This document shows, piece by piece, positions 1 to 15,157 of a stretch of 16,387 bases of DNA. Made by a program: the position numbers and the translations under genes. Under the pieces are notes generated by a model that was not told the DNA's origin, searched no databases, and saw nothing but the letters and a program-made list of their open reading frames with translations. Origin of the DNA: a virus (taxonomy: Duplodnaviria; Heunggongvirae; Uroviricota; Caudoviricetes); the IMG/VR virus record IMGVR_UViG_2711768071_000023. One strand, 5' to 3'. How positions within the stretch are numbered: position 1 is the first letter of the stretch; each line of letters begins with the position of its first letter.

Positions 1-1461
1 ATGAAAAAATTACTGCATCTTTTTTTCCCGCTCTCGCTGCGGGTACGTTTTCTGTTAGCAACGGCAGCAGTAGTATTGGTGCTTTCGCTTGCCTACGGAA
101 TGGTTGCGCTGATCGGTTATAGCGTCAGTTTCGATAAAACCACGTTTCGGCTGTTACGTGGCGAGAGCAATCTGTTCTATACCCTTGCGAAGTGGGAAAA
201 CAATAAGTTGCATGTCGAGTTACCCGAAAATATCGACAAGCAAAGCCCCACGATGACACTAATTTATGATGAGAACGGGCAGCTTTTATGGGCGCAACGT
301 GACGTGCCCTGGCTGATGAAGATGATCCAGCCTGACTGGCTGAAATCGAATGGTTTTCATGAAATTGAAGCGGATGTTAACGATACCAGCCTCTTGCTGA
401 GTGGAGATCATTCGATACAGCAACAGTTGCAGGAAGTGCGGGAAGATGATGACGACGCGGAGATGACCCACTCGGTGGCGGTAAACGTCTACCCGGCAAC
501 ATCGCGGATGCCAAAGTTAACCATTGTGGTGGTGGATACCATTCCGGTGGAGCTAAAAAGTTCCTATATGGTCTGGAGCTGGTTTATCTATGTGCTCTCA
601 GCCAATCTGCTGTTAGTGATCCCGCTGCTGTGGGTCGCCGCCTGGTGGAGTTTACGCCCCATCGAAGCCCTGGCAAAAGAAGTCCGCGAACTGGAAGAAC
701 ATAACCGTGAATTGCTCAATCCAGCCACAACGCGAGAACTGACCAGTCTGGTACGAAACCTGAACCGACTGTTAAAAAGTGAACGCGAACGTTACGACAA
801 ATATCGTACAACGCTCACCGACCTGACCCATAGTCTGAAAACGCCACTGGCGGTGCTGCAAAGTACGCTGCGTTCTCTGCGTAGTGAGAAGATGAGCGTC
901 AGTGATGCTGAGCCGGTAATGCTGGAGCAAATCAGCCGCATTTCACAGCAAATTGGCTACTACCTGCATCGTGCCAGTATGCGCGGCGGGACATTGCTTA
1001 GCCGCGAGCTGCATCCGGTCGCGCCACTGTTGGACAATCTCACCTCGGCGCTGAACAAAGTGTATCAACGCAAAGGGGTCAATATCTCTCTCGATATCTC
1101 GCCAGAAATCAGCTTTGTTGGTGAGCAGAACGATTTTGTCGAAGTGATGGGCAACGTGCTGGATAACGCCTGTAAATATTGCCTCGAGTTTGTCGAAATT
1201 TCTGCAAGGCAAACCGACGAGCATCTCTATATTGTGGTCGAGGATGATGGCCCCGGTATTCCATTAAGCAAGCGAGAGGTCATTTTCGACCGTGGTCAAC
1301 GGGTTGATACTTTACGCCCTGGGCAAGGTGTGGGGCTGGCGGTAGCCCGCGAAATCACCGAGCAATATGAGGGTAAAATCGTCGCCGGAGAGAGCATGCT
1401 GGGCGGTGCGCGGATGGAGGTGATTTTTGGTCGCCAGCATTCTGCGCCGAAAGATGAATAA
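1..1461 (+). CDS. phoQ: Sensor histidine kinase PhoQ (complete)
   Basis: 486-aa ORF, ATG at 1, TAA at 1459-1461. Translation shows an N-terminal TM segment, periplasmic sensor region, second TM, H-box ([13 protein letters not shown]) and HATPase motifs ([15 protein letters not shown]). Near-identical to enterobacterial PhoQ as I recall it. Confidence 0.95.
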
Positions 1462-1543
1462 ATATGTCCTTTTATCACCAAATTAAGATAAGGCATTGAT
1501 TTAATTAAATAATTTGCACTGCAAAAAGTGCCAAAAATCGCAA

Positions 1544-1567
1544 ATTAACTACACCATTAACTACACC
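1544..1567. repeat. Perfect tandem direct repeat ATTAACTACACC x2 in the phoQ-proximal junction
   Basis: Two adjacent identical 12-mers read directly from the sequence, followed at 1584-1600 by AACAA motifs spaced 10 bp apart. Confidence 0.6.
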
Positions 1568-1932
1568 GTTCGGTGCACTGTATGAAACAACGTGGAACAA
1601 ATAGACACAAGAAATATACAGGCGGGTCATCTTTCCAGGGGAAAGCACGCCAATTCATGAGGGGCGTTAATGTCGATATGGGGATCCCCATAACGGGGCT
1701 ACCTGGCTTTTTTTCCGGTTAAATGTCAATCAGGCTGGTGGGTTTTACATACCCTTGATCACCGTAATGATGATTCAGATCTGCACCTTTCCACCAATGG
1801 TGGAAAAGCCCACAGCAGGCCGCCCAGCCTCCCCCAATGGGGGATTGTGGAAGAATCAACGGGTTAGGCCTTAATCATCTGCGTAATCATAAGTAATCAT
1901 AATGTTCATTCATCCAGCGCAATTTTGCGTTA

Positions 1933-1956
1933 TCGGGAATATCAAACAGTTACCGC
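1933..1956. repeat. 24-bp direct repeat, copy 1 (TCGGGAATATCAAACAGTTACCGC)
   Basis: Matches 2077-2100 at 23 of 24 positions; lies in the non-coding junction 144 bp from copy 2. Confidence 0.7.
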
Positions 1957-2076
1957 GCCGACTTCCTCAAATTGAGGTTTCCGAAAATATCAGCGGGTTA
2001 GCGATTAAGCTGACCATTAATTAAACTGCGAAAATGTCGTAGTTGTGAGGGGTGTAGCCAACCCATTTTTGGACCG

Positions 2077-2100
2077 TCGGGAATATCAACCAGTTACCGC
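2077..2100. repeat. 24-bp direct repeat, copy 2 (TCGGGAATATCAACCAGTTACCGC), spans the stop codon of the terminal island gene
   Basis: One mismatch relative to 1933-1956; includes the TAA (2094-2096, minus strand) of the 97-aa ORF. Confidence 0.7.
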
Positions 2101-2387
2101 CGCAACCGCTCCGGCTTCTTCCAGTGGTAAGTAATTTTTTCTTTCTCCTGGAACATCTCCACGCGGCGACGATATGACAACAACTCCAGAACTCTGGTGC
2201 GTATATTGCGTATATCCACGCCGTTAAGCTCGATACCGTCACGGCGCATCACCTCAGCCACCACACGCGCGTAATTTTCGGCTATCACGCTGTCCGGCTG
2301 CGTGGCCTCCTGTTTGCCTGCTTCCTGGCTGATTCCGGTAACGCGGCGGATTATTTTTAGTAGTTCGGTTTCGCTCATTCTCGTCAT
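2094..2387 (-). CDS. Hypothetical small basic protein (97 aa), last gene of the packaging operon
   Basis: ATG at 2387 overlaps the terL stop as ATGA (translational coupling). Arg/Lys-rich C-terminus. No family recognised. Confidence 0.6.
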   Translation of the reverse strand: MTRMSETELLKIIRRVTGISQEAGKQEATQPDSVIAENYARVVAEVMRRDGIELNGVDIRNIRTRVLELLSYRRRVEMFQEKEKITYHWKKPERLRR

Positions 2388-4045
2388 ACCCCATCAAACG
2401 CCGCAAGCCGCTCTTTGTGGCTGTCGCTCATATCAAATGCAAATTCCTCATGCTCTGCCTGGAATGTGCCAAACGCCATCAGCGCCGCAACGCTCGGGTC
2501 TATCTTGTTGGATGATTTTTTCTTGTTCGGCTTGATATTGGCGTTCGCGTCACTCTGCATCACAACATTACTCATTGACCAGGCCAGCACCGGATCGCCA
2601 CGATGCACAATCACCTTCCGGTTAACAAAAACTTCGAACGATTTCGCCGCCGGACTGAAACGAAGGTATGTTTGCGGGAACGGCTCCACCTCAAATCCTG
2701 CCCCCTGTAGCTGCGTCCTCAGGTGCGTGGCGTTCCATGTATCGAAGCCCACCAGCCTGATATTGAAATTCTCTGCATCCGCCATGATGTCATCACGGAT
2801 ACGGTCATAATCAATGCAGTCACCCGGTGTTGTGCGTATCCAGCCCGCCTTTACCCACTGGCGATAGATGGCGCGGTTTTTATTGGCGGGGTTCTGTAGC
2901 TGAAATTCCGGCAGATAGTGACGGGAAACCAGCATAATCTTTTTACCGACCGGAAAGGCATAGCACACGCTGGAAATATCGCTGGTTGATGATAAGTCCA
3001 GCCCCGCGTAGCACTCCTGCCCGTATAAATCCGCCTCCGCGAACGTTCCGGCGCACTCCGCCCATGCACCGTTACCCATCCACGGCGTAGCCCCCTGACA
3101 CCAGATATTGAATCGCTTGGTGAGCATTTCCACCCACTGCGACGGAATACCCCGCGCTTTCTGGATGGTTGAGGCCAGTTTTTCACGATCGACGGAAACA
3201 TCGATATTGGGATTCGCCTTTATCCACATCGCCGGATCGTCAACCTCGCTTTCATCATCCAGCTCGTAAATCAGCACGAACATGGATTCGTTCACCTCTT
3301 CACCATCCAGTATCTGGCAGCAATAGTCATAGTGTTGTTTACAGGCTGAAACAACGTTGCTCCCCGATGTGGTGATGGCAAATAACAGCCCCTCCGGACG
3401 CGCCCCCATTCCCAGTTCAAGCGCGGAATAAACCCCGTTGTCAGGGTGCAGGTGATATTCATCCACAATGGCAAGACTCGGGTTTGTACCTTCAATGGTT
3501 GCCGCTTTTGCTGCCAGTGGCTTTAACAGGCTGTTGGTTTTCGGGTGTATCACCTTGTGTGCCTGAATATTTACCCGCTTTCGTAACGGTCGGGATAAAA
3601 GGCACATCTGACGCGCATCATCAAACACGATCCGCGCCTGATCACGACTCACGGCGGCGGTGTAAATATCCTGCTGCCCGTTTTCCATAACCAGAAACCA
3701 GTTAGCCAGGATAGCGGCGACCGTGGATTTGGCATTTTTTCGCGGCACTTCAATGAATGCGCTGGTGTATTTGCGCCGTCCGGTGGCCTTAACCTTAAAG
3801 CCCAGGATGCACGCAAAGGCGAACTGCTGCCACGGCTCCAGCTCAATGGGGCTACCGCGCATTGCGCCTTTTACGTGCGGACACACCCTGGAAAAGGCAA
3901 TAAACCGCTCCACGACCTCCGGATCGAACGTGTAAAGGGGGTTTTCAAGGTCAGAAAAATACCGTTTAACGGCCTGTTTCAGTCGTTTACAGGCCGTAAT
4001 TTTGCCGTTTTTTACGCCTTCTGCGTACTCATGCCAGGCGGTCAA
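2384..4045 (-). CDS. terL: Phage terminase large subunit (553 aa)
   Basis: Long ORF whose translation has terminase ATPase and nuclease domain character. Lies directly downstream of terS with a 17-nt overlap. The ORF-track start at 4045 is a TTG codon, so the exact start is uncertain. Confidence 0.88.
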   Translation of the reverse strand: MTAWHEYAEGVKNGKITACKRLKQAVKRYFSDLENPLYTFDPEVVERFIAFSRVCPHVKGAMRGSPIELEPWQQFAFACILGFKVKATGRRKYTSAFIEVPRKNAKSTVAAILANWFLVMENGQQDIYTAAVSRDQARIVFDDARQMCLLSRPLRKRVNIQAHKVIHPKTNSLLKPLAAKAATIEGTNPSLAIVDEYHLHPDNGVYSALELGMGARPEGLLFAITTSGSNVVSACKQHYDYCCQILDGEEVNESMFVLIYELDDESEVDDPAMWIKANPNIDVSVDREKLASTIQKARGIPSQWVEMLTKRFNIWCQGATPWMGNGAWAECAGTFAEADLYGQECYAGLDLSSTSDISSVCYAFPVGKKIMLVSRHYLPEFQLQNPANKNRAIYRQWVKAGWIRTTPGDCIDYDRIRDDIMADAENFNIRLVGFDTWNATHLRTQLQGAGFEVEPFPQTYLRFSPAAKSFEVFVNRKVIVHRGDPVLAWSMSNVVMQSDANANIKPNKKKSSNKIDPSVAALMAFGTFQAEHEEFAFDMSDSHKERLAAFDGV

Positions 4046-4385
4046 GCTCGTCCTCTTCCTCTGTTTCCGGTGGATTTCTGCGGCGACTTACCGGGTCAAA
4101 ACCCAGCAAAGAAGCCATTTTGATCATTATTCTTTCAGCGTCAGCCTTTGCGCTCAGGGCGGGGTTTCTGCTCTCGCTGCCCTGACTGTTAACAATGCTG
4201 AACCCGCGCGTGGCAAGGTCTTCGACGGCTTTGCGGTATATGGAGTAGTTAACACAATACAGCTCCAGATTGCTCCAGTCGGCGGGGGTAAGGTCTTCCC
4301 GTCCGGAAAGCTGGCGCGATTTTTCCTTCCACTGCCTGACCGCGATTTCATCCAGGTAAGCGGGGGCTTTTGGTGGTCTTGCCAT
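4029..4385 (-). CDS. terS: Phage terminase small subunit, P27 family (118 aa)
   Basis: Internal ATG at 4385 gives MARPPKAPAYLDE... with the conserved P27-family pattern (W..L...G.LT.AD...LE.YC..Y, C-terminal GF.P.SRRR). The 47 upstream codons of the track ORF look non-coding. Confidence 0.85.
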   Translation of the reverse strand: MARPPKAPAYLDEIAVRQWKEKSRQLSGREDLTPADWSNLELYCVNYSIYRKAVEDLATRGFSIVNSQGSESRNPALSAKADAERIMIKMASLLGFDPVSRRRNPPETEEEDELDRLA

Positions 4386-4673
4386 GTTCTTTTTTCGCCC
4401 AATTATTTTCAAAAAAATTCCCGTGCACAAAAATTTGAGGAGGCGGTCGGTGTCCGGCAGGGACGGTTTCGTCCTGAAAACCACCCCCACCCCCTCTGAC
4501 GGCCTCACCAGCGATTGCGAAAACATTCCATGACCTCGCGGTCACGGTCGGTTAATTGCTTCGCTGTGGTGCGTTCTGTGCGCCCTGTCCTGTTGGCTTT
4601 GTGCCCTGTCTCCTGTGTCTTCCATAAGTCACGCTGCCTTATCAGTCCACGTATCAGCCTGGTTTGCTCCTGT
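4386..4673. other. Candidate cos / terminase-recognition region between HNH and terS
   Basis: 288-bp gap in an otherwise overlapping operon. Contains a GC-rich run CCACCCCCACCCCC (4481-4494), short hairpin 4458-4476, and direct repeats TGTGCGCCCTGTC / TGTGCCCTGTC (4577-4589, 4600-4610). HNH-cos-terS is the usual arrangement in HK97-like cos phages. Confidence 0.35.
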
Positions 4674-5114
4674 TCAGTCATCATCGCCATACATCCAGTC
4701 GTTACGGTGTGCTGCCCGTTCTTCCTGCTCGCGATACATGCCCGCCTTACGGTTCGCTTTCGTGGCTGGATCTTCCCGTGTCGTCTTACGGTTGTGGCAC
4801 GTCTGGCACAATGCCTGGTGGTTCCACTCAGGCCAGAAGAGAACATCACCGCCGCCATTGATGGGGATGATGTGATCCACCACAAGAGCTGGCGTATAAA
4901 TCCCCTTAGCCAGACAACGCACGCATAACGGGTTTTTGCTCAGGTACAGGGCGCGGTATTTGTCCCACTGTCGGGAATACCCGCGCGCGCGGCGGTGTCC
5001 CCGTCTGGCATCCTCTGCACGCCATACAGCCCGTCTGTGCTCTTCACACTTGCCGGACTTCACGCGCTTATTACAGCCCGGCTCAGTGCATCGCCTTAAT
5101 GGTTGCCACGGCAT
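4674..5114 (-). CDS. HNH endonuclease, packaging-associated (146 aa)
   Basis: Cys-rich N-terminus (CTEPGCNKRVKSGKCEEH) and HNH core (VVDHIIPINGGGD ... NHQALCQTCHNRKT). ATG at 5114 overlaps the connector stop by 1 nt. Preceded by SD GGGGGTG. Confidence 0.85.
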   Translation of the reverse strand: MPWQPLRRCTEPGCNKRVKSGKCEEHRRAVWRAEDARRGHRRARGYSRQWDKYRALYLSKNPLCVRCLAKGIYTPALVVDHIIPINGGGDVLFWPEWNHQALCQTCHNRKTTREDPATKANRKAGMYREQEERAAHRNDWMYGDDD

Positions 5115-5416
5115 CAGTACACCCCCACATCACGATAAACCGACCAGAGCGCAGAAATAGCCATAGGCAGTTCAGACTGCTCCACTGGTGAAACTGCTTC
5201 CCTGTTCTCGTACAGGAAAGCGATGTACATCAGGCAACCAACACGCATTGCCGGGGTAAATTCCAGCCCGTCTTCAAAACGTTTCCCGATATGCTTCTGG
5301 CAGGCTTCCAGCGCCGCATCGGTATACATTTTCAGAAGTTCGCCTTCACCGGATAAATCATCATCAAGTCGAAGATGTGCCCTGACTTCATCAGGTGTAA
5401 TTCTGGCTTCACTCAT
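5114..5416 (-). CDS. gp6-like head-tail connector / DNA-packaging protein (100 aa)
   Basis: Internal ATG at 5416 with strong SD AAGGGAG. Small acidic protein with the pattern typical of gp6-like head-tail connectors. Overlaps the portal stop by 8 nt. Confidence 0.65.
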   Translation of the reverse strand: MSEARITPDEVRAHLRLDDDLSGEGELLKMYTDAALEACQKHIGKRFEDGLEFTPAMRVGCLMYIAFLYENREAVSPVEQSELPMAISALWSVYRDVGVY

Positions 5417-6623
5417 CTTTTCTCCCTTTAATTTCCACAGTCTGTTTCCATGCCTGGCTGAACTCATCACCACCTTCACGCGGCGGCATACCCTCGCGTT
5501 CGCGAGCTTCGTTCGGATTCATGATCCCGCTCTTAATCCCTTTCTCATACGTGGCATAACGTTCGGTGGGTGTGGCGCGCAGTAAATCGGCTGAATCAAA
5601 CTCAACCAGATAACGGGTACCAGGTACGGGAGAAGTCACCAGCAAAGCGGCCTTGATTTGCTGTTCGAAGTTCGCCAGCCACGGGCGCATTGTCATGGTC
5701 AGAAATGCGCGGCTCGCCTCACTGAAATTGCTGTAGGTGCTGTTGCTGTATTCCTGAAGAAAAATCGGCGACACGTTGAACATCCTGGCGATGTCTTCAA
5801 TGGAGAAGCGACGGGAGGCCAGCCATTCCGCATCCTGGTTACTCATCCCCAGCTGCCTGTAATCCATGCCCCCTTCAAGGATTGGCGTTTTTCCGGCATT
5901 TTTCGCCCCCTTGTAGCGTTCCAGTGCGTCTAATGCCTGTTTACCTTTCACGCCGTCCAGCCATTCACCTGACGTGATAATCCCTGCCGCCATCATGCCA
6001 TCTTTCATAATGCTGGCTCCGTGACGCTGTTGAGCAAGGCCAAGCCCCAGCGCCTCACGGCAAATCGTGACGGGGGAACGCCCCAGAAAGCCATCATCCG
6101 AGGCATAGCGGAGATGCAGAACTTCTTCCTGTAAATACGTGCGCACCGTTCCTGTACAGGGTTCGGTGATGGTATAGCGGTATTTGTGTGTGCCTGTGCG
6201 TTCCGGTACAACACACCCCGGCGCATAAGGATGAAGTGATTTTGGCTGCCCGTCCCGCCCCCACTCAATAACCGCATAGGCGTTACCGTTCAGCAGGCAG
6301 TGACGCATCATTGTGCGTTTAAACTGGTAAGGTGTCAGGCACGAATTAGGCTGCTCATTCAGCAGAATATCTACCGGGTGACTGTCCAGCCATTCCCGCG
6401 CCTCTCTGCCCTTATCATTGCGTACCAGATACAGGTAACACGGCATCGTGGCCACCGCCTCAGCGATGACAGAAACCGCGTTCATCACAGCAGGCAATGA
6501 TTCAGCCGTCCCGGCAGAAACATATTCTCCGGATCCGGTATTTGGTACACCAGACAACGCCAGAAAATCATCAATGGACAGGTTACGCAGATCGCTTTTT
6601 TTACGACTAAAAGGCCACCACAT
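5409..6623 (-). CDS. Phage portal protein, HK97-like (404 aa)
   Basis: Internal ATG at 6623 (MWWPFSRKKSDL...). Size and sequence character typical of HK97-family portals. Lies between protease and connector. Confidence 0.88.
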   Translation of the reverse strand: MWWPFSRKKSDLRNLSIDDFLALSGVPNTGSGEYVSAGTAESLPAVMNAVSVIAEAVATMPCYLYLVRNDKGREAREWLDSHPVDILLNEQPNSCLTPYQFKRTMMRHCLLNGNAYAVIEWGRDGQPKSLHPYAPGCVVPERTGTHKYRYTITEPCTGTVRTYLQEEVLHLRYASDDGFLGRSPVTICREALGLGLAQQRHGASIMKDGMMAAGIITSGEWLDGVKGKQALDALERYKGAKNAGKTPILEGGMDYRQLGMSNQDAEWLASRRFSIEDIARMFNVSPIFLQEYSNSTYSNFSEASRAFLTMTMRPWLANFEQQIKAALLVTSPVPGTRYLVEFDSADLLRATPTERYATYEKGIKSGIMNPNEAREREGMPPREGGDEFSQAWKQTVEIKGRKDE

Positions 6624-6624
6624 A

Positions 6625-7185
6625 TCACAACCCCGCCAGTTCAGCCCAGCGATGACGATTATTTCCTGCCGGGCGTAATTCAGGGTACTGTGCAAACAAC
6701 GAACGGTGGGCAATCTCCACGCCGGATTCGGGATAAGCAGGCATCGATGTTATCGTGATTTCACGGAGTTCTGCTGCGGTTACAGTACGCAGATACGGTT
6801 TTTGCGCGATATTCCACTCCTCGCATAATGCGCGAAAGCCAAAGCTCATTCCTGTAATATCGCCACGTTCCACCAGCGTAAGCACATCTTTTCCAAGCTG
6901 GGTATTTGGCGGTGTCAGTTCAAAACGTAGCCCGGTGTTATCCTCAGTCAGTACCAGTGAGCCGGATTTGGTACGCCCCAGCAGTTGGGTATAGTCATGC
7001 TCATACAGACAGCGCACATCATTACCTGCCGCCAGATAGTCAGCAAAAGCCCCCGGCGTGAACTGTTCGCGAAACTCGTCCCAGATAATTTCTGAAAGGC
7101 TGTTCCAGCGAACGGCATAACCCACCAGTTTTTTATCGCTGGCGGTCAGTTCAGATGTACGGATTTCAAAATCGGTGTTTTTCAT
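6625..7185 (-). CDS. Prohead protease, HK97 family (186 aa)
   Basis: Internal ATG at 7185 (MKNTDFEIRTSE...) with SD GGAG. Translation resembles HK97-type prohead proteases (GYAVRWN..., ...GMSFGF...). Stop lies immediately upstream of the portal start. Confidence 0.85.
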   Translation of the reverse strand: MKNTDFEIRTSELTASDKKLVGYAVRWNSLSEIIWDEFREQFTPGAFADYLAAGNDVRCLYEHDYTQLLGRTKSGSLVLTEDNTGLRFELTPPNTQLGKDVLTLVERGDITGMSFGFRALCEEWNIAQKPYLRTVTAAELREITITSMPAYPESGVEIAHRSLFAQYPELRPAGNNRHRWAELAGL

Positions 7186-7234
7186 CGGTGTACTCCATAA
7201 AGCTGAAAAAGGAGGCCGAAGCCCCCTTTGCTCA

Positions 7235-8380
7235 TTACTTGCCAGCCTGAATTTCCAGAATCTTGATGGCGTTCGAATCCACCACACCACCGCCCAGATA
7301 TTTCTGGGTATAGATGTTAATGAATCCAGGCTCGCTGAAATCCGGACGGGTACGCGTACCGGTTTTATGGTCAACGATGAAATAACCGCGCTTAAAGTCA
7401 CCGACTGCAATCACACCGTCCGGCATAAATTCCAGATATTCAACCGGAAGCCCCAGCAGAGAATCAGGATCACCAGCCTGTAAACGATCGCGCCAGATGT
7501 AATCACCAGTGGCATTTTTCAGTTTTTGTGCGGAGGCGGCTGTATTTGAGTTCATCACCCATACAGCTTTTTTGCGGTACTTATTGCGCAGCGTAAATTT
7601 CAGGTCAATCAGCATATCGGCGCTGAGACTGCCAGTCACTTTTTTCGTCTGGAGCGTACCGAAAGGACGGGTTTTGTCATTATCCGTAGTGCGCGGGAAA
7701 GTCAGGAAACCTTTGGCTTTTTTCTCGCCATCACCGGAAACCAGATCCGTTTCTTCGGTATCAACGAAAGTGTCGCCAATTTCAGAAGATAACCAGCCCA
7801 TAATATCGACTTCGGAAAAATCGATAATTTCCTGAGTGGTTTTCGGGTAAGCGTAGATCGGATACAGGCGGATACTGACTTCATTCAGTTTTGGGGTTGC
7901 CGTCTGGTTACGTGCCGCACCTTCTTCGCCGTGTCCCACGACCGCACCCCCGGCAGAAACCAGTTGCTTAAATTCATTACTGTGAATGGTTTTAACAGTA
8001 CAGATTTTACGCATCACCGACTCATCAGAAAGCTGACGCATAATTTCTCTGTTCAGTTCCGGGATAACCGTATAACCACCATCAGCCGGGACACTGCCGG
8101 ACAGGTTGCGGGTTTCCCCGGTCAGAATGTAAGAGCGTAGTTCGTCTTTGGTGATTTTCTCTTCGACGGAAACACCTGGCTGGTTACGTTCTTCATCCGC
8201 AACAGCTTCAAGACGGGAGATTTCTGTGTCGAGGGAATCGGCTTTTGCACGCAGTTCATCAAACTGTTTGCCTTCGTCATCGTTCAGGCTGCGGTTTTCA
8301 CTGTCGGCTTTTTCCAGCAGGGATCGCATCTGGTTTTTCAGGGCGGTTTTTTGCTGGCGGAGTTCGATTAATTTCTTCAT
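7235..8380 (-). CDS. Major capsid protein, HK97 fold with N-terminal delta domain (381 aa)
   Basis: ATG at 8380. First ~100 residues are a coiled-coil-like scaffold segment (LRQQKTALKNQMRSLLEKA... LDTEISRLEAV) followed by an HK97-type capsid body. Confidence 0.9.
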   Translation of the reverse strand: MKKLIELRQQKTALKNQMRSLLEKADSENRSLNDDEGKQFDELRAKADSLDTEISRLEAVADEERNQPGVSVEEKITKDELRSYILTGETRNLSGSVPADGGYTVIPELNREIMRQLSDESVMRKICTVKTIHSNEFKQLVSAGGAVVGHGEEGAARNQTATPKLNEVSIRLYPIYAYPKTTQEIIDFSEVDIMGWLSSEIGDTFVDTEETDLVSGDGEKKAKGFLTFPRTTDNDKTRPFGTLQTKKVTGSLSADMLIDLKFTLRNKYRKKAVWVMNSNTAASAQKLKNATGDYIWRDRLQAGDPDSLLGLPVEYLEFMPDGVIAVGDFKRGYFIVDHKTGTRTRPDFSEPGFINIYTQKYLGGGVVDSNAIKILEIQAGK

Positions 8381-8573
8381 GAAGGTTTTCTCGTATTGGT
8401 TAAGATTCAGGACGTGAAACCAACACGGAGGGAGCGCCGCCCGACACTCTCGGCATCTCGCAGATCAACCCGGCATCGCGCAGGGGGTCAGGCGGCATTG
8501 TGGCGGCTCACGTCTGAGTGCCACACGCCAACATATACATAAAAATCAGTATGTAAACATCAGCCAGAATCAC

Positions 8574-8602
8574 CGAACAACCTGGAACAACCACGAACAA
8601 AT
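8574..8602 (-). promoter_or_regulatory. Three 10-bp-phased TTGTTC repeats upstream of the capsid operon
   Basis: Plus strand reads cGAACAAcc tgGAACAAcc acGAACAAat, i.e. TTGTTC x3 on the coding (minus) strand at exact 10-bp spacing. Sits just downstream of the 8615-8644 terminator and about 190 bp upstream of the capsid ATG. Confidence 0.45.
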
Positions 8603-8614
8603 AATTTACAAAAC

Positions 8615-8644
8615 CTGAAAAAAGGCCCGGAAAAAATCCGGGCC
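8615..8644 (-). terminator. Intrinsic terminator after the replication/accessory operon
   Basis: Perfect 8-bp stem GGCCCGGA / TCCGGGCC (8624-8631, 8637-8644) with a 5-nt loop, followed on the minus strand by TTTTTTC. Lies 10 bp past the stop of the 8654-8902 ORF. Confidence 0.7.
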
Positions 8645-8653
8645 TTTATCGCT

Positions 8654-8902
8654 TTATTGTTTCACTGGCTCCCGCATTCTGCGTCTTATTTTCCACAAAT
8701 ATTCGATCATCGCTTCCACCTGCTCACGGTTGGTTGCGAAAATTTCCCCGGTCAGTGAGCTACGCAGAAAATCATGATGATCCACAAAAAATAACGCATC
8801 GGAAGAAAGCAACCGACGATATTTTTTTGCTGTCGTGGTTTCCAGATCATCAAAACCATGAAGCTTTTTATGTTGCTGAACTTCTTCAAATGTCACTGGC
8901 AT
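8654..8902 (-). CDS. Hypothetical protein (82 aa)
   Basis: ATG at 8902 with strong SD AAGGGGGAT. Overlaps the stop of the ProQ/FinO-like gene by 10 nt. No family recognised. Confidence 0.5.
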   Translation of the reverse strand: MPVTFEEVQQHKKLHGFDDLETTTAKKYRRLLSSDALFFVDHHDFLRSSLTGEIFATNREQVEAMIEYLWKIRRRMREPVKQ

Positions 8903-9423
8903 GTATCCCCCTTTGCTGCCCGGCGCTGGCGCTTGTGCTTCTCATTCAGCACCATCAGCCGTGTTTCTGCCTCCTGCTGTTCCTGTGGTGTCACTTCCCC
9001 ACATGGCTGGCCTTTCAGATCGTAACGTGCGCCACCAGCTATCAGGGCGCGGTAATAGCGCGGAGACTGCGCATAGGATGCCAGCGTCGCACGTAATACC
9101 CCCGGCCCGAATGCCAGCCCCCTGACGGCGATATCCTGCATCAGGTCGTCGAATATCCCCACCTTAAGCGGCTTCGGTGCTTTATGGCTGAATAAGTCAG
9201 GCCACATCTCAGTGAGGCGGTTAACGCGTCGGCGGTTTTTGCGCTGCCTTTTGGTCATATGCTGCCACGGTGTCGCCCCTGTGGGCTTCTGCTGTGCGTT
9301 CTGATTGCCGGGTATCACTTTATGCGCCGATGTGGTTTTATCCTGCTCTTGCGCCGCCTGCGTCGTTTTCTGCGGCGTGCCGTAAATGCCTTTCGGCTTC
9401 CGGTTAATGGTCAGCGTTGTCAT
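8893..9423 (-). CDS. ProQ/FinO-domain RNA-binding protein (176 aa)
   Basis: C-terminal two-thirds aligns by eye with the ProQ N-terminal FinO-like domain (PLKVGIFDDL ... LRATLASYAQSPRYYRALIAGGARYDLKGQPCGEVT vs ProQ PLKIGIFQDL ... [35 protein letters not shown]). SD GGGGAAGG precedes the ATG at 9423. Confidence 0.8.
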   Translation of the reverse strand: MTTLTINRKPKGIYGTPQKTTQAAQEQDKTTSAHKVIPGNQNAQQKPTGATPWQHMTKRQRKNRRRVNRLTEMWPDLFSHKAPKPLKVGIFDDLMQDIAVRGLAFGPGVLRATLASYAQSPRYYRALIAGGARYDLKGQPCGEVTPQEQQEAETRLMVLNEKHKRQRRAAKGDTCQ

Positions 9424-9459
9424 GCCTTCCCCTGTAATTACTCTGTTCGCTGTTGTGAA

Positions 9460-9885
9460 TTAAAACGGTATGTTATCCCCGTACGGGTCATCGTGCTGGC
9501 TTGTCTGTTGTTTTGCCCTGTTCAGTGCGTCAGTGGCCTGGCCCTGTTGACCTTTTTTGCCGCCCGGTCGCGCCGTTCGCGCACTGATTACGCTGTCTGC
9601 AATAACCTGCCAGCCCTGCCGCGTTTCCCCGTTCTGGCCTGTCCACTGGCTCACCTGCATGTTACCCGCCACGCTCACCAGTTCGCCTTTGTGGTGTTTT
9701 GCCAGTGCGTCGGCCTGTCTGCCAAACGCCAGGACAGATAACCACATCGTCGCCGTTCCGTCATCTGCCTGGCTGCACGGCAGGGGAACCGCCATACTCG
9801 CCATCGCCATTTGTGTCCCTTTGCTGGTGGTCTTTAACTGCGGGTCAGCCACCAGCCGCCCGTAAGCCGCTATCTGTGCTGTCAT
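9460..9885 (-). CDS. ssb: Single-stranded DNA-binding protein (141 aa)
   Basis: OB-fold pattern comparable to bacterial SSB (GRLVADPQLK..., WLSVLAFGRQADALAKHHKGELVSVAGNMQVSQWTGQNGETR) and an acidic C-terminal tip ...DDPYGDNIPF resembling the SSB DDDIPF tail. ATGA overlap with the upstream ORF. Confidence 0.75.
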   Translation of the reverse strand: MTAQIAAYGRLVADPQLKTTSKGTQMAMASMAVPLPCSQADDGTATMWLSVLAFGRQADALAKHHKGELVSVAGNMQVSQWTGQNGETRQGWQVIADSVISARTARPGGKKGQQGQATDALNRAKQQTSQHDDPYGDNIPF

Positions 9886-10127
9886 GCTGTCTGCTCTCCG
9901 GTTTTAACGTTGATGGTTGTCACCTGTTCCGCTTCGGCAATCTCCCGTTCTGTCAGCGTGGCAAAGTTTGCTGCCGCCGTGGTCATGAATGCGCTTATCA
10001 GTTCGGGATGTGCTTTTGCGTACCCTTCTCCCGCGTTGCGGTCGATGATTTTTATCGCCACCCTCAGCCAGTGTTCTGTCAAATCAAGGGCGTGAGATTG
10101 TGGTTTTTTTGCGTGCTTCGTTGTCAC
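9882..10127 (-). CDS. Hypothetical protein (81 aa), GTG start
   Basis: Track ORF starts at a GTG (10127) preceded by SD GAGGT. Translationally coupled to ssb. No family recognised. Confidence 0.45.
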   Translation of the reverse strand: MTTKHAKKPQSHALDLTEHWLRVAIKIIDRNAGEGYAKAHPELISAFMTTAAANFATLTEREIAEAEQVTTINVKTGEQTA

Positions 10128-10178
10128 AGGCTTTACCTCACAGCAATAAAATAAAATTTTTGCATTTTAACCCTTCAC

Positions 10179-10401
10179 CTGTTCACCTTTTGAGATTTTC
10201 CCTTTTTATTCATAATGTTAAGGGGTGAACAGTTTCACAAAAACTATTCACCAACTGTTCACCACTGTTCACCCTTAAAGCTCAATAAATAATCAAAAAG
10301 GTGAACAGTGAATAGTTTGGTGAACAGTTCACAAATAACTGTTCACCCTATAATGTACTGATATAAAAGATATTTATAACAGGGTGAACAGTGGTGAACA
10401 G
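10179..10401. repeat. Iteron cluster, candidate replication origin
   Basis: Nine perfect copies of GGTGAACAG in both orientations (GGTGAACAG at 10224, 10300, 10319, 10383, 10393; CTGTTCACC at 10179, 10255, 10265, 10339) plus degenerate copies, several pairs at 10-bp phasing. An AT-rich stretch (10350-10380) is embedded. Lies immediately 3' of the primase-helicase gene. Confidence 0.75.
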
Positions 10402-10414
10402 TTATTCCATAAGT

Positions 10415-12229
10415 TTAATTTTTGCTGTCGTCATTTGTGACCGATGCACATGATGGCATACAGTCTTCTGAATCCTCTGTCAGTGTCACATTTGAACGCA
10501 AACCGTGCTTCGTTTTCCGTTTTATATACTCCCTGCCATATTCCGCCATTGCCCCCGGCATATCTTTACCGAAGCGCGTCAGTGTTACAGGTTTACCGAA
10601 TCCGTGTGCCCTCATATATGCCAGATAGGCGTGATAAAGATACCTGCGCGGACTGAACGGAATAATTTCGGCATTACCCACTAACAGACCATCACACATT
10701 ACCGACGACATGAGATAGCCACAGAAGTCCACCAGCGAATCGCCCTCGCGTTTTATCACCAGAGCTTCTTCTGATTTCTGCTGCTCATACAGCAGGCGTT
10801 TAGCTTCGTCCTGGTCAGAAAAACGAGTAAGCAGATGGCGAATCACAACCGCCAGCTCTCCTTCTATTTTTTCTGCCAGCATGGGGTCGCGCTCGTTCTC
10901 CGGTACAACCTCCGAAAAATTGAATATCACCCGACGACGTGAGATCCCCCCGCTGCGGTCACTGAATGACATGGCGTTATTGTTCACCGCCAGCACGACC
11001 GCCTGAATGCGTGTTGAGTAGGGGGCTTTATGCTTCGGGTCGATTGCCACCTTGTCACCGCCTGTAATGGCCTTAATTCCTGCGCCATCACCAGCGTAGC
11101 GGGTCATATCCGGCATGATAATCAGCGAAAAGCCAACCACTAACGCGCGTTCCCTTGCATCTTCCAGCGCCTTCATGCTTGCCGATACTGTGTTGGCCTT
11201 ACCCGCCAGCATAGTGCAAATCTCCGCCATCACGCTTTTACCACTTCCCCCTGGACCTGTTACCTCAATGAATAACTGCCAGTCGTACCGGTTCGCCAGC
11301 ACCATGAATAATGCAGCCAGCACGCGATCCGTCTTGCGGTCATTCTCTGCCACCGAGCAGCGTAACCACTTCCAGAAATTCGGCGCATGTGTTGCCAGCG
11401 TTTCCCCCTCTGCTGGTGGGCTGAAAGGTAATTCACTGGCAATTAACAACCAGTCGTTTTTGTTATGCTCCCGAAAATTACCTGTTCTGGTATCAAATAC
11501 CCCGTTACTGAATCCAATCAGGTTACGGGCTGTATTCCCCATTACAGGCAAACTTAACTTCATGGTATCGACCGCCGATTTAATGGCGTTCTGCGAATAG
11601 CTGATCTCCGCATCAATGAAAATCTGCGCCATAGCACGCTGTAACTCTTTATCCTGAATCGGCTCCCATACAACGCCGTTGTAATGGTGAACAGTGTCAG
11701 AGTCGGCATGAATCGCCAGTTCACCGCCATAATGTGCCAGGAGAACTTCGCCGCGCTGGCTTGCTCCCATCTGGTTAAGCGCCAGTGGTGCGGCGCTGTC
11801 TTCTGTTTTTTTCTTAACAGGAAGCTGAATCACCAGACCATCAGAAAGATTCTGGCGCTCACGGGCCAGATATTCGCGCCAGTTCTGCACCTCCTGACCG
11901 TGCATACCCTCAGGATAAAAATTTGCATCCTGTACGCCTGCCGCCGCCAGCTTCTGACCAATCGCCTTTATCATTACTGGCGCAAGATATCCGGCCCTGA
12001 ATATGCGCACGGATTTTCTGCCTTCCGGCACAATTTGCAGCTTATCCAGTTCGGATAACTGCTGCTCCCCAAGCCACACAGGAGGCTCATTATCTCCGGC
12101 CATACGCGCGTCATGTTCCTGCCATTGTTTTGCGTGTGACCAGGCATCACTACCCGCAAAAATAATGACTTCTGTTTCTTTGTGTTTTATGCCGCGTGAC
12201 TGCTGTTTTACGTTCGGTGCCAGTTTCAT
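10415..12229 (-). CDS. Replication initiator primase-helicase, P4-alpha/D5-like (604 aa)
   Basis: Walker A motif GPGGSGKS and downstream helicase-like region in the C-terminal half. Strong SD AGGGGGT. Position next to the iteron origin matches a pri-rep gene. Confidence 0.85.
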   Translation of the reverse strand: MKLAPNVKQQSRGIKHKETEVIIFAGSDAWSHAKQWQEHDARMAGDNEPPVWLGEQQLSELDKLQIVPEGRKSVRIFRAGYLAPVMIKAIGQKLAAAGVQDANFYPEGMHGQEVQNWREYLARERQNLSDGLVIQLPVKKKTEDSAAPLALNQMGASQRGEVLLAHYGGELAIHADSDTVHHYNGVVWEPIQDKELQRAMAQIFIDAEISYSQNAIKSAVDTMKLSLPVMGNTARNLIGFSNGVFDTRTGNFREHNKNDWLLIASELPFSPPAEGETLATHAPNFWKWLRCSVAENDRKTDRVLAALFMVLANRYDWQLFIEVTGPGGSGKSVMAEICTMLAGKANTVSASMKALEDARERALVVGFSLIIMPDMTRYAGDGAGIKAITGGDKVAIDPKHKAPYSTRIQAVVLAVNNNAMSFSDRSGGISRRRVIFNFSEVVPENERDPMLAEKIEGELAVVIRHLLTRFSDQDEAKRLLYEQQKSEEALVIKREGDSLVDFCGYLMSSVMCDGLLVGNAEIIPFSPRRYLYHAYLAYMRAHGFGKPVTLTRFGKDMPGAMAEYGREYIKRKTKHGLRSNVTLTEDSEDCMPSCASVTNDDSKN

Positions 12230-12513
12230 TTTTTACCCCCTGCGACCAGCATTTCACGAATTTTGCGGATATGACTTGCTGCACGTTTCTGATTTACGGC
12301 TTTACGATGGCCCACCAGCGTGAAATCACGCCGGAACTGATAAACAGGCATCACGCAGTCATATTCGTAGCCATCACGGCGGTAAGTGATGCGCCGTTCT
12401 GCCACGCCTTTTATCGTTACCGTGCCGCCATAGTTATCCCGGAAAATATCGCCGGGGCGGATTTCAGGCCGAGCGGGGCCGCTGGCAGTAAAGCCAGAAT
12501 TTTTCTTTTTCAT
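12226..12513 (-). CDS. Hypothetical protein (95 aa)
   Basis: ATG at 12513. Stop overlaps the primase start as ATGA. No family recognised. Confidence 0.5.
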   Translation of the reverse strand: MKKKNSGFTASGPARPEIRPGDIFRDNYGGTVTIKGVAERRITYRRDGYEYDCVMPVYQFRRDFTLVGHRKAVNQKRAASHIRKIREMLVAGGKK

Positions 12514-12519
12514 GTTTTT

Positions 12520-12738
12520 TTACTCCAGAGGCAGCTTTTTAGCGGCGAGCTCAATATCAGATGTCAGAGAAACCTGTGTATTTGCCAGGTCTAACAACAA
12601 AGAAATAAGAATTTCTTCTCTGCTATCGGATTTATCGGTGCTAAGGCTGTTCATCCACATATTGACGACTTCCCTGATTTTTTTCGCAGAGTGCAGGGCT
12701 TCAAATGCCAGGTCTTCAATATCATGTTTATTTCGCAT
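12520..12738 (-). CDS. Hypothetical small acidic protein (72 aa)
   Basis: Internal ATG at 12738 with SD GGGGG. Overlaps the upstream gene stop by 11 nt. Confidence 0.45.
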   Translation of the reverse strand: MRNKHDIEDLAFEALHSAKKIREVVNMWMNSLSTDKSDSREEILISLLLDLANTQVSLTSDIELAAKKLPLE

Positions 12739-12940
12739 AATCGCCCCCGCGTAGCTGGTCTGCACTAACACCCGATTTAGTGAGCATTTCAGAAAATCCC
12801 GCAAGAGTGCTGATAAATTCGTTTTCCATTAAACGGCACTGACATTTAACCCGGCCTTTTTCCAGATACACCAGTACGCGCCCCGTATAATCTGACGGCA
12901 CATTCAGCACTACAGGTAAGTGCGATTCATGATTATGCAT
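12728..12940 (-). CDS. Small protein, paralog B of a tandem pair (70 aa)
   Basis: SD AGGGGGTGA. Shares a motif with the adjacent 69-aa protein (TGRVLVYLEKGRVKC vs TGQLLVNVDKGRVVC). Confidence 0.55.
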   Translation of the reverse strand: MHNHESHLPVVLNVPSDYTGRVLVYLEKGRVKCQCRLMENEFISTLAGFSEMLTKSGVSADQLRGGDYAK

Positions 12941-13142
12941 GTCTCACCCCCTGAATATTCGCATTAATCATTCCGGCACGTTCTGCGAGTTCCTGTAATG
13001 ATTCCCTTGTTGCGACAATGGCTTCATCTGGCAGGTGGTAATTACACACCACGCGACCTTTATCCACATTGACCAGTAGCTGCCCGGTAAATTTCTCACG
13101 AAACTGAACGCGGTTAAGGTCGGTAAGTGACAGGTTAATCAT
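12933..13142 (-). CDS. Small protein, paralog A of a tandem pair (69 aa)
   Basis: SD AGGGGG. Paralogous to 12728-12940. 8-nt overlaps on both sides. Confidence 0.55.
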   Translation of the reverse strand: MINLSLTDLNRVQFREKFTGQLLVNVDKGRVVCNYHLPDEAIVATRESLQELAERAGMINANIQGVRHA

Positions 13143-13338
13143 GGTGTTCCCCCTGGCGAATACGGGCAGCGAATACCATCACGCAGCCATCAGGAGATTG
13201 CTGACGCGCTTCCTGTTCGCTGGTGGCCTCAATGGTAATCACGCGCGGTTGTGCCGTGCTCAGGGCGATAAAACGCCAGATGTATTTATTCAGGTTGTGC
13301 GAGTCCCGCCCTTGCGGGTGTGTGGTATGATTTCTCAT
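13135..13338 (-). CDS. Icd-like small protein (67 aa), first gene of the leftward early operon
   Basis: In-frame ATG at 13338 with SD GAGGT inside the 473-codon track ORF. Translation MRNHTTHPQGR...VITIEATSEQEARQQSPDGCVMVFAARIRQ resembles the Icd-like proteins of P4-type prophages as I recall them. Family assignment is from memory only. Confidence 0.5.
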   Translation of the reverse strand: MRNHTTHPQGRDSHNLNKYIWRFIALSTAQPRVITIEATSEQEARQQSPDGCVMVFAARIRQGEHHD

Positions 13339-13446
13339 AGCTACCTCGATACTCTCGTTATCGTTGGTGGTTAGAAGCCCCGTTACTGCTCCAACAGTGC
13401 GGGGCTTCGTCGTTTCAATTGCTGAATTGCATGTATCAGCACTTGT

Positions 13447-13500
13447 GGTATTCACATTACATTTAGGTGAATACCATTTCAAGTCTTTTTTGGTATTCAC
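13447..13500. promoter_or_regulatory. Operator-like repeats in the divergent control region
   Basis: Perfect inverted repeat GGTATTCAC-N11-GTGAATACC (13447-13475) plus a third direct copy TGGTATTCAC (13491-13500). Lies between the minus-strand Icd-like start (13338) and the plus-strand regulator start (13544). Confidence 0.5.
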
Positions 13501-13543
13501 TTTTGTATTACACTGCATCCCGTTATTAATGGGAGGTGCAAAC

Positions 13544-13849
13544 ATGTCCAGGAGTTCTGTTAACAATAAGTCACAGCAACTGAATGCCAGATTTCCACAT
13601 GAAGTAGTGAGTGGCATTGAGGCATCCCTACAGCCAGGGGAAACTAAAGCGAATTTTATAGTTACGGCTGTACGCGGTGAGATCGCCCGGCGCCAGGCAG
13701 AAGGAAGTGGAGAAAATCCCCTGGTTTCTTCGCTCGATGCACTGGCGCAGGTGGAAAAACTCGGAATCAAAGCCGCCGAGGAGATCGGGCAGCTCGTCAC
13801 TGTCGCACGTGAAGAACTCCAGCGCCGCAAGACCAAAGAACCAGAGTAA
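13544..13849 (+). CDS. Ribbon-helix-helix (Arc/MetJ-type) DNA-binding protein, candidate island repressor (101 aa)
   Basis: ATG at 13544 preceded by GGGAGGTG at 5-nt spacing. N-terminus QQLNARFPHEVVSGIEAS...ANFIVTAVRGEIARRQ fits the RHH beta-strand plus two-helix pattern. One of only two credible plus-strand genes inside the element. Confidence 0.6.
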   Translation: MSRSSVNNKSQQLNARFPHEVVSGIEASLQPGETKANFIVTAVRGEIARRQAEGSGENPLVSSLDALAQVEKLGIKAAEEIGQLVTVAREELQRRKTKEPE

Positions 13850-13906
13850 TCACCATCAGCGCCGTGGTGTAAGGTATTACGGCGCATTGCTATGCAGGAC
13901 AACACA

Positions 13907-14080
13907 ATGACCGATAAAGAATTGACCAAAACATTATCACCGGCACGGAAAAGACGGCGCAGAAAGATAGAGCATGAATCAGAAAGATTCGCGCCATGTG
14001 CTTTTGCCCTTGAGCAATTCCTTAAAGAGTACAGGGAAAAGCGCTCATTGCAGGTATGGCAACGAACTGAACCAGACTGA
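13907..14080 (+). CDS. Possible small basic protein (57 aa)
   Basis: ATG at 13907 (MTDKELTK...) in the same transcriptional direction as the RHH gene. Weak SD. No family recognised. Confidence 0.3.
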   Translation: MTDKELTKTLSPARKRRRRKIEHESERFAPCAFALEQFLKEYREKRSLQVWQRTEPD

Positions 14081-14256
14081 TTGCATTGCCCACCAGCCGC
14101 AAATGTGGCATTGTTGGCAATGCTCATGCGTTGGGGATAACGTGTAGCTTGTGTCGAGGGGCCACCGTAGCGGGTGGCCTTTGTTTTGCCCGTTATTCGG
14201 CAATTGTGGCGCTTCTCCACATGGTTGATATAATCCCACTGCTCAGATTCATTTTT

Positions 14257-14556
14257 TGCGCAGTAGGTTAATTGTTCACAAAGGCGCTCCGGCAACGGGG
14301 CGCTTTTTGTTTTTATTAGTTTGTAGAAACCTGACTCAGAGATAATGCTCATATTCTGATTGCCGTCAGGGGTGTAAGTTAAATTTACTCCCTTTTTATC
14401 ATCAAACATCTGCAACGCTCTGGCGTTAACAATATTGGTTTCACTCCCGCCAGTAAGGCCGGAAATAACCGGAATAATTTCGGCAAAATTTTGCAGATTC
14501 TGTTTTTCAGGACGAACGAAGCCCCGCCCTTGTTCGGGAGAATATCCAGTATTCAT
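14257..14556 (-). other. Possible coding segment: N-terminal ~100 codons of the 473-codon ORF, 3' end unresolved
   Basis: ATG at 14556, 52 bp downstream of alpA. Residues ~60-90 (TPDGNQNMSIISESGFYKLIKTKSAP) resemble the core of Bro-N-type domains. The frame has no stop until 13135 and runs antisense through the RHH gene and the 14284-14314 terminator. Confidence 0.3.
14284..14314 (+). terminator. Intrinsic terminator on the plus strand
   Basis: Stem GCGCTCCG / CGGGGCGC (14284-14291, 14296-14303; 7 Watson-Crick pairs plus 1 GU) with GCAA tetraloop, followed by TTTTTGTTTTT (14304-14314). Confidence 0.6.
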
Positions 14557-14608
14557 GGTTAGATCTCTGTATTAGTGGATGGGTGGCGGCTGTGTGCCGC
14601 CAGCCTGA

Positions 14609-14797
14609 TTAGTGAACTGCCTCGCAGCTGTCCTTCCATGCCAGAACTTCGGATAAAGACCAGCCAACGGAACGACCGCCCAGCTTACGCCGTGATGGGA
14701 ATTGTCCGGCTTTTTCCAGGCGGTACCGACATGAGCGGCTCAGGCCTGTAAGTTGCTGACATTCTTTTTCACGTATAAAGCGATCTGTGCTTAACAC
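14609..14797 (-). CDS. alpA: AlpA-family transcriptional regulator (62 aa), GTG start
   Basis: Translation MLSTDRFIREKECQQLTGLSRSCRYRLEKAGQFPSRRKLGGRSVGWSLSEVLAWK matches the AlpA family HTH pattern. GTG start at 14797 preceded by AAGGGGGAA. Confidence 0.8.
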   Translation of the reverse strand: MLSTDRFIREKECQQLTGLSRSCRYRLEKAGQFPSRRKLGGRSVGWSLSEVLAWKDSCEAVH

Positions 14798-15070
14798 AAT
14801 TCCCCCTTTGTTGTTTCTTAAAGAGTCATTGGGTGGATTATTGGGTTGTGTCGGATTGTGTCAGGGTGTTTGTGGAATGGCAAACACTGGCGGCGGTCGT
14901 TTTACAGAAGCAGGGGGAATGAGAATAAAAACTCTTTTAATTCATTATGATGCAAAGGCATAAAATTTTACTTTTACGCCTTTTTTACATATTTTTAAGA
15001 GTGATTCGCCAGTGTATAAAAAAACAGTACACCTATAAAAATCAAATGGTTATTACGATGGCTGATTTTT

Positions 15071-15130
15071 AACCCGTTGTTCCATTTTGTTCCTTGTTGT
15101 TCGTCGTTGTGTCTCGTTGTTTCACGTTGT
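15071..15130. repeat. Six direct GTTGT repeats at exact 10-bp phasing between int and alpA
   Basis: Consecutive 10-mers aacccGTTGT tccatTTTGT tccttGTTGT tcgtcGTTGT gtctcGTTGT ttcacGTTGT. The same motif family recurs at 14846-14862, 8575-8600 and 1585-1600. Confidence 0.65.
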
Positions 15131-15157
15131 CCGCATCCTGAAAAATCGCAAAAAAAA

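Follow-up and report, generated by a model that had tools for sequence, protein, structure and literature searches.

A capsid-forming phage satellite beside phoQ of Escherichia coli, with a small conserved gene and a probable HNH-dependent cos site upstream of terS

The 16,387-nt stretch of DNA analysed in this work (the window; IMG/VR record IMGVR_UViG_2711768071_000023) carries a capsid-forming PICI (cf-PICI), a phage satellite of Escherichia coli that adjoins phoQ, and not a phage. The interval 4386-4673, flagged between the gene of an HNH endonuclease and the gene of the small terminase subunit, most probably combines a small gene (4681-4505) with the island's own HNH-dependent cos site of the HK97/SfV type (4504-4386). 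The first-pass annotation of this DNA, in which the interval was presented as a cos site and terminase recognition region, has proved partly right: the place and the family of the cos were chosen correctly, while a gene was mistaken for a site and a G-run for the core.

The packaging operon and all genes near the flagged interval lie on the minus strand. The features of the window that define the element are the following:

1-1461, plus strand: phoQ (chromosomal), flanking the terL side
2384-4045, minus strand: terL, large terminase, with ATPase and nuclease domains (PF03354, PF20441)
4029-4385, minus strand: terS, small terminase of the P27 family (PF05119, E=1.6e-23; phrog_83)
4674-5114, minus strand: HNH endonuclease, 146 aa (PF01844, E=8.8e-10; phrog_144, E=7e-45)
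5479-5114, minus strand: a single head-tail connector (PF05135)
8380-7235, minus strand: major capsid protein, with the prohead protease and portal next to it
8893-9885, minus strand: SSB (141 aa) and a ProQ/FinO-domain protein (176 aa), between the replication and capsid modules
12229-10415, minus strand: D5-type primase-helicase (rep)
14797-14609, minus strand: AlpA-like excisionase/regulator
16387-15158, minus strand: integrase (int)

The whole of the window past phoQ, from 1462 to 16387, is one cf-PICI of about 15 kb located just downstream of that gene. The start codon of the integrase falls on the last base of the window, and the att site on that side therefore lies outside the view. The island, whose size is within the 10-18 kb of cf-PICIs, combines integrase, regulation and replication modules (int, AlpA, D5-type rep) with its own capsid, protease, portal, connector, HNH, TerS and TerL and has no tail or lysis genes (zero matches to tail or lysis families among its predicted proteins scanned). 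This combination is the published definition of cf-PICIs, satellites that make their own capsids and terminase and borrow tails only; the element is not an HK97-like phage.

An identical locus is found in E. coli strain 700481, and the name given by PGAP to its HNH gene is “HNH endonuclease signature motif containing protein”. Of 5,426 complete E. coli genomes, 534 have related loci; one of them is EDL933, which harbors the prototype EcCIEDL933. Induction by a helper phage and transfer in small capsids with tails of the helper have been shown for that island; over the flagged region, the DNA of EcCIEDL933 is 84% identical to the window. The order int, alpA, rep, capsid, protease, portal, connector, hnh, terS, terL is shared with EcCIEDL933 and KpCIDSM30104, both of them cf-PICIs that are likewise devoid of tail genes, and the arrangement of HNH, small ORF, cos blocks and terS is the same in the EDL933 island. 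The island of the window differs in lacking the head-closure gene (PF05521), which is present in EDL933-type islands and in most other cf-PICIs (5114-5479 of the window compared with 490-1121 of locus L125), and in carrying the 58-aa form of the small ORF, not the 50-aa one. The adaptor/connector region has been named variable in the cf-PICI preprint. In the cf-PICI literature compared, the use of cos is stated and its location is not given.

The pair of SSB and ProQ/FinO genes recurs in an E. fergusonii relative (locus L276). The 473-aa protein encoded at 13135-14556 on the minus strand has no Pfam match; its last 90 residues match the phage “transcriptional repressor” family phrog_6196 (E=7e-54), and near the N terminus there is a short anti-repressor-like stretch; other cf-PICIs have different genes at that place. 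Just 3' of the primase-helicase stop lies a second sizeable gap of the island, 10128-10414 (287 bp), with no listed ORF of at least 40 aa on the operon strand and with GC down to 0.36-0.38 in composition windows; the claim that the flagged interval is the only sizeable gap therefore holds for the capsid-to-terL operon and not for the island.

The true intergenic region is the 119 bp at 4504-4386, directly 5' of terS, and most probably contains the cos. The gap had been given as 288 bp, from the end of HNH (4674) to the start of terS (4385), and is reduced to this length because the ORF at 4681-4505 is a conserved gene. The following elements are placed in the intergenic region:

4471-4494, minus strand: block A, the G-run plus TTTTCAGGAC, a conserved upstream cos element
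4456-4491, minus strand: imperfect inverted repeat, arm 4491-4477 pairing with spacer 4470-4456, loop CAGGAC
4403-4451, minus strand: block B, the 49-nt cos core ACCGACCGCCTCCTCAAATTTTTGTGCACGGGAATTTTTTTGAAAATAA
4440-4449, minus strand: predicted cohesive end (cosN), 5'-CGACCGCCTC-3', 10 nt, positional homologue of the mapped SfI end
4411-4425, minus strand: predicted TerS binding site CACGGGAATTTTTTT, +15 to +29, a GC-rich stretch followed by a T7 tract

Conservation was assessed in 32 genomes picked by the terS protein alone, one per species, with the upstream sequence read afterwards; selecting loci by the terS protein only avoids circularity. In this sample, column identity is 0.81 in block A (taken here as 4493-4471) and 0.90 in block B, compared with 0.59 in the spacer between the blocks, and block B exceeds even the first and second codon positions of terS (0.85, 0.86 and 0.59 for positions 1, 2 and 3, respectively). 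The consensus of block B reads ACC.CC.GCC.CCTCAAATTTTT..GCACGG..ATTTTTTTGAAAATAA. Exact copies of the 23-mer around the G-run were detected in 58 metagenome contigs and in more than 120 viral ones; the window has a single copy where 0 would be expected, far above chance. Block B also has one match in the window with 0 expected. Both blocks recur across Enterobacterales, Aeromonas and Pasteurellaceae, and both are present in Pasteurella “phage” Pmp8, a 15.3-kb record with cf-PICI packaging genes in which the small gene at 4681-4505 (ORF58) is absent.

The G-rich run CCACCCCCACCCCC, re-derived exactly at 4481-4494, is a conserved part of the site and not the cut, the predicted cohesive end lying 31 nt downstream. 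By analogy with lambda, block A may have a cosQ-like role. The inverted repeat pairs the G-run/T-run arm with the variable spacer and includes the imperfect hairpin CAGGGACG/CGTCCTG noticed earlier, whose coordinates (4458-4476) were confirmed and which, together with the direct repeats considered below, is specific to the window's own clade. Folding with ViennaRNA yields an MFE of -20.7 (z=-2.2) in the window and a mean z of -1.7 over 30 lineages, with z <= -2 in half of them (15/30) and z >= 0 in six, e.g. Klebsiella and Pluralibacter.

At least nine loci with this terS family were found in one genome, that of Pasteurellaceae bacterium Macca (L220-L227, L242). In the Macca1 copy, palindromic sequence replaces the cos blocks within the 135 nt read upstream of terS; the same palindromic replacement upstream of terS is seen in Bisgaard taxon 46, and in Haemophilus sp. 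FF7 about 85 nt of similar palindromes are inserted between block B and terS.

Mapped cos sites provide the frame in which these blocks can be read. Run-off sequencing of SfI virion DNA left a 10-nt gap, TGCCCGCCCC, which is the cohesive end, and the packaging genes of SfI have been reported to be identical to those of SfV (PMC3636060); a gap, rather than an overlap, in the run-off reads is the outcome expected of 3' overhangs. HK97 has 10-nt 3' overhangs as well, and the minimal site of its TerS, CTAACCCGATTTTTT, spans +15 to +29 (PMC11331095). Comparison of the GC-rich segment with cos sites of HK97-like coliphages had been suggested as a check in the first-pass annotation. Globally aligned to cf-PICI gaps, the SfV and HK97 cos junctions beat 500 of 500 shuffles (z = 4.3-5.7), and in five of five junctions (HK97, SfV, the window, the EDL933-type island and Pmp8) the G-run is separated from the 10-mer by 31-32 nt, an A/T tract lies at +21 to +24 and the distance from +1 to the start of terS is 47-62 nt. 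The island has the gene neighborhood of an HNH-dependent cos, with HNH (5114-4674) on one side and terS (4385-4029) and terL (4045-2384) directly downstream. The original placement of a cos between HNH and terS is thus borne out by the conserved blocks and by a layout that matches the mapped SfI/SfV and HK97 sites; the analogy with HK97 was apt, and the architecture fits SfV/SfI more closely still.

The layout of the window is GGGGGTGGGGGTGG-31 nt-CGACCGCCTC-CTCAAATTTTTGTGCACGGGAATTTTTTT..., with the T7 tract at +23 and a distance of 54 nt from +1 to terS. The cos cut is placed at 4440-4449 with moderate confidence, and an overhang of 10 nt with 3' polarity is carried over by analogy from SfI and HK97. 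The packaged left end would start at 4439 (CTCAAATTTTTG...; longer, on the minus strand, CTCAAATTTTTGTGC...), the right-end duplex would stop at 4450 (...CCGGACAC) with the 3' overhang CGACCGCCTC, and TerS would contact 4425-4411, as suggested by the position of the HK97 TerS minimal site alone. The predicted 10-mer varies among lineages (CACCCGCCCC, CGCCCGCCCC, CGCCTGCCCC, CGACCGCCCC, CGACCGCCTC, CACCCGCTCC) and its flanks are nearly invariant, as would be expected if self-complementarity of the overhang alone matters.

With this mapping, blunt-ended libraries of packaged DNA should give a unit-length contig that runs from CTCAAATTTTT to just before the 10-mer, and one such contig exists. IMGVR_UViG_3300022664_000095, a cf-PICI contig of a sister clade (15,518 bp, terS at nt 61), has the order terS, terL, int, rep, capsid, portal, HNH, ORF50 (50 aa), starts at CTCAAATTTTT (CTCAAATTTTTACGC...; longer CTCAAATTTTTACGCACGGTGATTTTTTTGAAAATAAAAC...) and ends with ...GGCAC (...CAAGGCAC; longer ...GGTTTTCAGGACAAAACCCAAGCCGCAAGGCAC). 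In integrated relatives exactly CACCCGCCCC stands between those two ends, and the contig lacks exactly the homologous 10-mer. The exact-end data come from this one contig of a sister clade, whose 10-mer differs from that of the window at 3 of 10 positions; we infer a cut at the same position in the window's own clade.

Two further records are terS-first cf-PICIs that end in the gap: LR881103 (16,548 bp, “induced prophage”), in which 69 nt centred on the predicted cut are missing, and the last ~15.9 kb of PQ569648, eroded by ~135 nt. LR881103.1, deposited as “Escherichia phage vB_KppS-Ant”, runs terS, terL, capsid, portal, connector, HNH, small ORF; the 766-aa product encoded after terL has been named a tail tape measure protein, which is doubtful because no Pfam match was obtained with its 768-aa counterpart in a relative (L277). 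In PQ569648.1 (“Klebsiella phage P12620-1”, a “complete genome” of 106,503 bp) the cf-PICI stretch, read at its two ends only, begins at the second codon of terS, reaches the end of the small ORF, as in packaged order, and is joined to unrelated phage sequence, so that the record appears to be a concatenation of two molecules, a larger phage genome and a cf-PICI. According to a preprint, the cohesive ends of packaged cf-PICI DNA re-anneal and give rise to concatemers (bioRxiv 10.1101/2025.02.11.637232).

A scan for contigs of the window's clade that begin at the predicted end yielded none, and in bulk metagenome contigs ends do not accumulate at the site, which is expected of integrated copies. 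Several apparent contig ends were discarded, those of L019, L090, L186 and L251 being storage-chunk boundaries and that of L156 an ordinary contig end; the 15-17 kb contigs with ORF58 homologues from Logan and NCBI all have the int-to-terL order and are therefore silent on cos.

It is unlikely that the conserved blocks are instead signals for the expression of terS-terL (a promoter, an mRNA hairpin or a translational operator) and that the cos lies elsewhere. Such a function would be compatible with the position of block B in Pasteurellaceae, where it abuts the terS ribosome-binding site, and with the hairpin that the G-run and the spacer can form in about half of the lineages. However, in scans of 4386-4700 the sole promoter-like match was on the non-coding (+) strand, with no sigma-70-like promoter on the coding strand, the two weak terminator matches were within chance expectation and neither is convincing, and no Rfam family was recognized (best match E=0.84). 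Furthermore, in Pasteurellaceae block B lies too close to the ATG to leave space for a promoter, the blocks align with the mapped SfI/SfV and HK97 cos sites at the same spacings, and the ends of the linear contig flank the 10-mer exactly.

The upstream part of the flagged stretch, about 60% of it, is a real and widespread small protein-coding gene:

4505-4681, minus strand: ORF58, 58 aa (phrog_3173); the start chosen by PGAP is 4690, giving 61 aa
4577-4616, minus strand: direct repeats, in the ORF58 linker (codons ~22-35)

The predicted protein matches the full length of the phrog_3173 profile (E=7.7e-28, residues 1-57 vs positions 1-57 of 57), and a CDS is annotated by PGAP at this locus in strain 700481 and in EDL933. 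The start of ORF58 overlaps the HNH stop by 8 nt (ATGACTGA), and the gene is probably translationally coupled to HNH. About 200 related loci encode the 58-aa form (the window clade) or one of several 50-aa forms that are 42-58% identical to it; across Enterobacterales, the protein falls into approximately five divergent types. In all of them reading frame and length are preserved, the ORF starts at the HNH stop and the C terminus carries the motif RDRE(V/L)(M/R)ECFRNR, encoded with synonymous third-position changes. A profile search retrieved 124 homologues, all unnamed, across Enterobacterales (Escherichia, Klebsiella, Enterobacter, Citrobacter, Salmonella, Erwinia, Pantoea, Hafnia, Xenorhabdus and Proteus). 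In two 50-aa clades pN/pS is 0.34 and 0.25; in the window's own clade it is 1.39 (7 synonymous vs 17 non-synonymous variable sites, nearly all in the linker), a neutral-like pattern in which purifying selection is not seen. The AlphaFold2 model (pLDDT 77.5, pTM 0.37; helices 3-38 and 45-55) suggests two helices and a basic linker. ORF58 is missing from Pasteurellaceae cf-PICIs that retain the cos blocks, and in the phage collection the protein occurs only in the three records with cf-PICI sequence.

The direct repeats TGTGCGCCCTGTC (4577-4589) and TGTGCCCTGTC (4600-4610) are located where they had been reported and extend to 17 nt at 76% identity in a repeat search. In the alignment of the 58- and 50-aa proteins, a 7-column insertion falls at the repeats (the remaining residue of the 8 is the C-terminal W58), and one E. 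coli variant of ORF58 lacks 7 residues exactly at this insertion. The TGT-rich repeats represent an in-frame expansion of the linker of ORF58 that is specific to the clade, and not a DNA site; since they are missing from EDL933-type and Pasteurellaceae loci that have the cos blocks, the role in terminase recognition originally ascribed to them is not tenable.

These observations bear on the view that all 288 bp of 4386-4673 are non-coding and recognized by the terminase, with the repeats serving recognition and the 58-codon ORF being spurious. It is contradicted by membership of the ORF in phrog_3173 (E=8e-28, rounded) and its annotation by PGAP, by the frame, start overlap and C-terminal motif kept in five or more divergent types, by the pN/pS of 0.25-0.34 in sister clades and by the lack of repeats in relatives with both cos blocks. 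The repeats as such are real, there is no synonymous excess in the ORF within its own clade, and the ORF is missing in Pasteurellaceae relatives, all of which would suit a non-coding region; nevertheless, this view is very improbable and, for 4505-4673, largely refuted. The first-pass annotation, which preferred a DNA site there and dismissed the ORF, had itself named a real ORF with coding repeats as the finding that would speak against it, and this is what was found. Small terminases of the P27 family are in principle not limited to cos phages. Headful (pac) packaging, with the conserved sequence as a pac site without fixed ends, has nothing more specific than this in its favor and is hardly credible in view of the HNH gene directly upstream of terS-terL (the signature of HK97-type cos packaging; Kala et al. 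2014 and Quiles-Puchalt et al. 2014, as cited in the cf-PICI literature), the cohesive-end concatemers of cf-PICI DNA and the unit-length contig that is short of exactly 10 nt.

As to the function of ORF58, we tentatively suggest a satellite-specific packaging accessory, perhaps a basic two-helix protein that would either aid the terminase or HNH of the island on its own cos or keep the terminase of the helper away from it, a proposal that is rather doubtful at present. It is prompted by the restriction of the protein to cf-PICI sequence in the phage collection, its conservation across the cf-PICIs of Enterobacterales and the phenotype of “hypothetical gene 1792” in the packaging module of EcCIEDL933, mutation of which severely reduced, and did not abolish, transfer (bioRxiv 10.1101/2022.09.08.507074). 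Gene 1792 may or may not be the homologue of ORF58; an interpretation of “1792” as a Z tag was ruled out, as Z1793 belongs to prophage CP-933N.

Under the preferred reading, a cf-PICI with its own HNH-dependent cos at 4504-4386, packaging could proceed as follows. Once induced, the island would excise and replicate, and its P27-family TerS would bind the GC-rich-plus-T7 element at approximately +15 to +29 (4425-4411). TerL, with the help of HNH, would introduce staggered nicks flanking CGACCGCCTC (4449-4440), giving 10-nt 3' cohesive ends, and the DNA would enter the small island-made capsid terS-end first, round to HNH-ORF58. The next cos would terminate the packaging round, possibly with a cosQ-like contribution of the G-run located 31 nt upstream of the cut. 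The cf-PICIs, satellites that were described only recently and are very widespread, encapsidate nothing but their own DNA, in capsids that they make themselves. A cut site predicted at the level of single bases, together with a candidate TerS site and the G-run, makes packaging specificity relative to HK97-like helpers and minimal cos plasmids testable, and packaged cf-PICI genomes should be recognisable in viromes as unit-length contigs minus 10 nt.

The cos of the island is an ordinary HK97/SfV-type site, the mechanism of which is itself already known. The closest likeness is with SfI/SfV. The junction of SfV, a phage with a P27-family terS and an HNH gene, is GGGGAGGGGCGGG-31 nt-TGCCCGCCCC-ATCGTTTTTTT..., and SfI/SfV share with the island the HNH gene, the G-run, the 31-nt spacing, a 10-nt GC-rich cohesive end, a T tract and terS approximately 50 nt downstream. 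The 10-mer TGCCCGCCCC agrees with the EDL933-type CACCCGCCCC at 8 of 10 positions and with CGACCGCCTC of the window at 7 of 10. The terS proteins belong to a shared Pfam family but are only ~35% identical; the tracts of SfV are T7 at +5 and A5 at +21, those of the island T5 at +7 and T7 at +23. SfI/SfV contain no ORF58-like gene between HNH and cos, and they are complete phages whereas the island is a satellite.

In HK97, the record of which ends with ...GGGGGGGGG-32 nt-CGCCGCCAAA and begins with GTTTGAATTTAACGCTAACCCGATTTTTTT... with terS at nt 50, a G-run likewise precedes the 10-nt 3' cohesive end (CGCCGCCAAA), here by 32 nt. The HK97 TerS site CTAACCCGATTTTTT and the candidate of the window, CACGGGAATTTTTTT, both consist of a GC-rich stretch, GA and a T tract. 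The corresponding genes of HK97 are gp74 (HNH, which stimulates cleavage), gp1 (TerS, ATG at +50) and gp2 (TerL). Mutually exclusive packaging of the island and the HK97-like helper HK106 has been reported in the cf-PICI literature, and the sequences of HK97 and the island differ enough to be consistent with it. In contrast to the island, the TerS of HK97 has no match to Pfam Terminase_4 and no detectable sequence similarity to the P27 family, and the ~320 bp from HNH to cos in HK97 are without an annotated gene.

The cos of lambda (cosQ-cosN-cosB) consists of an upstream termination element, a nicking site and downstream TerS-binding and bending sites beside the small terminase gene, and the island cos would follow the same three-part logic in its layout. 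Lambda has 12-nt 5' overhangs, requires no HNH protein and relies on Nu1 R-sites and IHF, points in which the island cos would differ from it.
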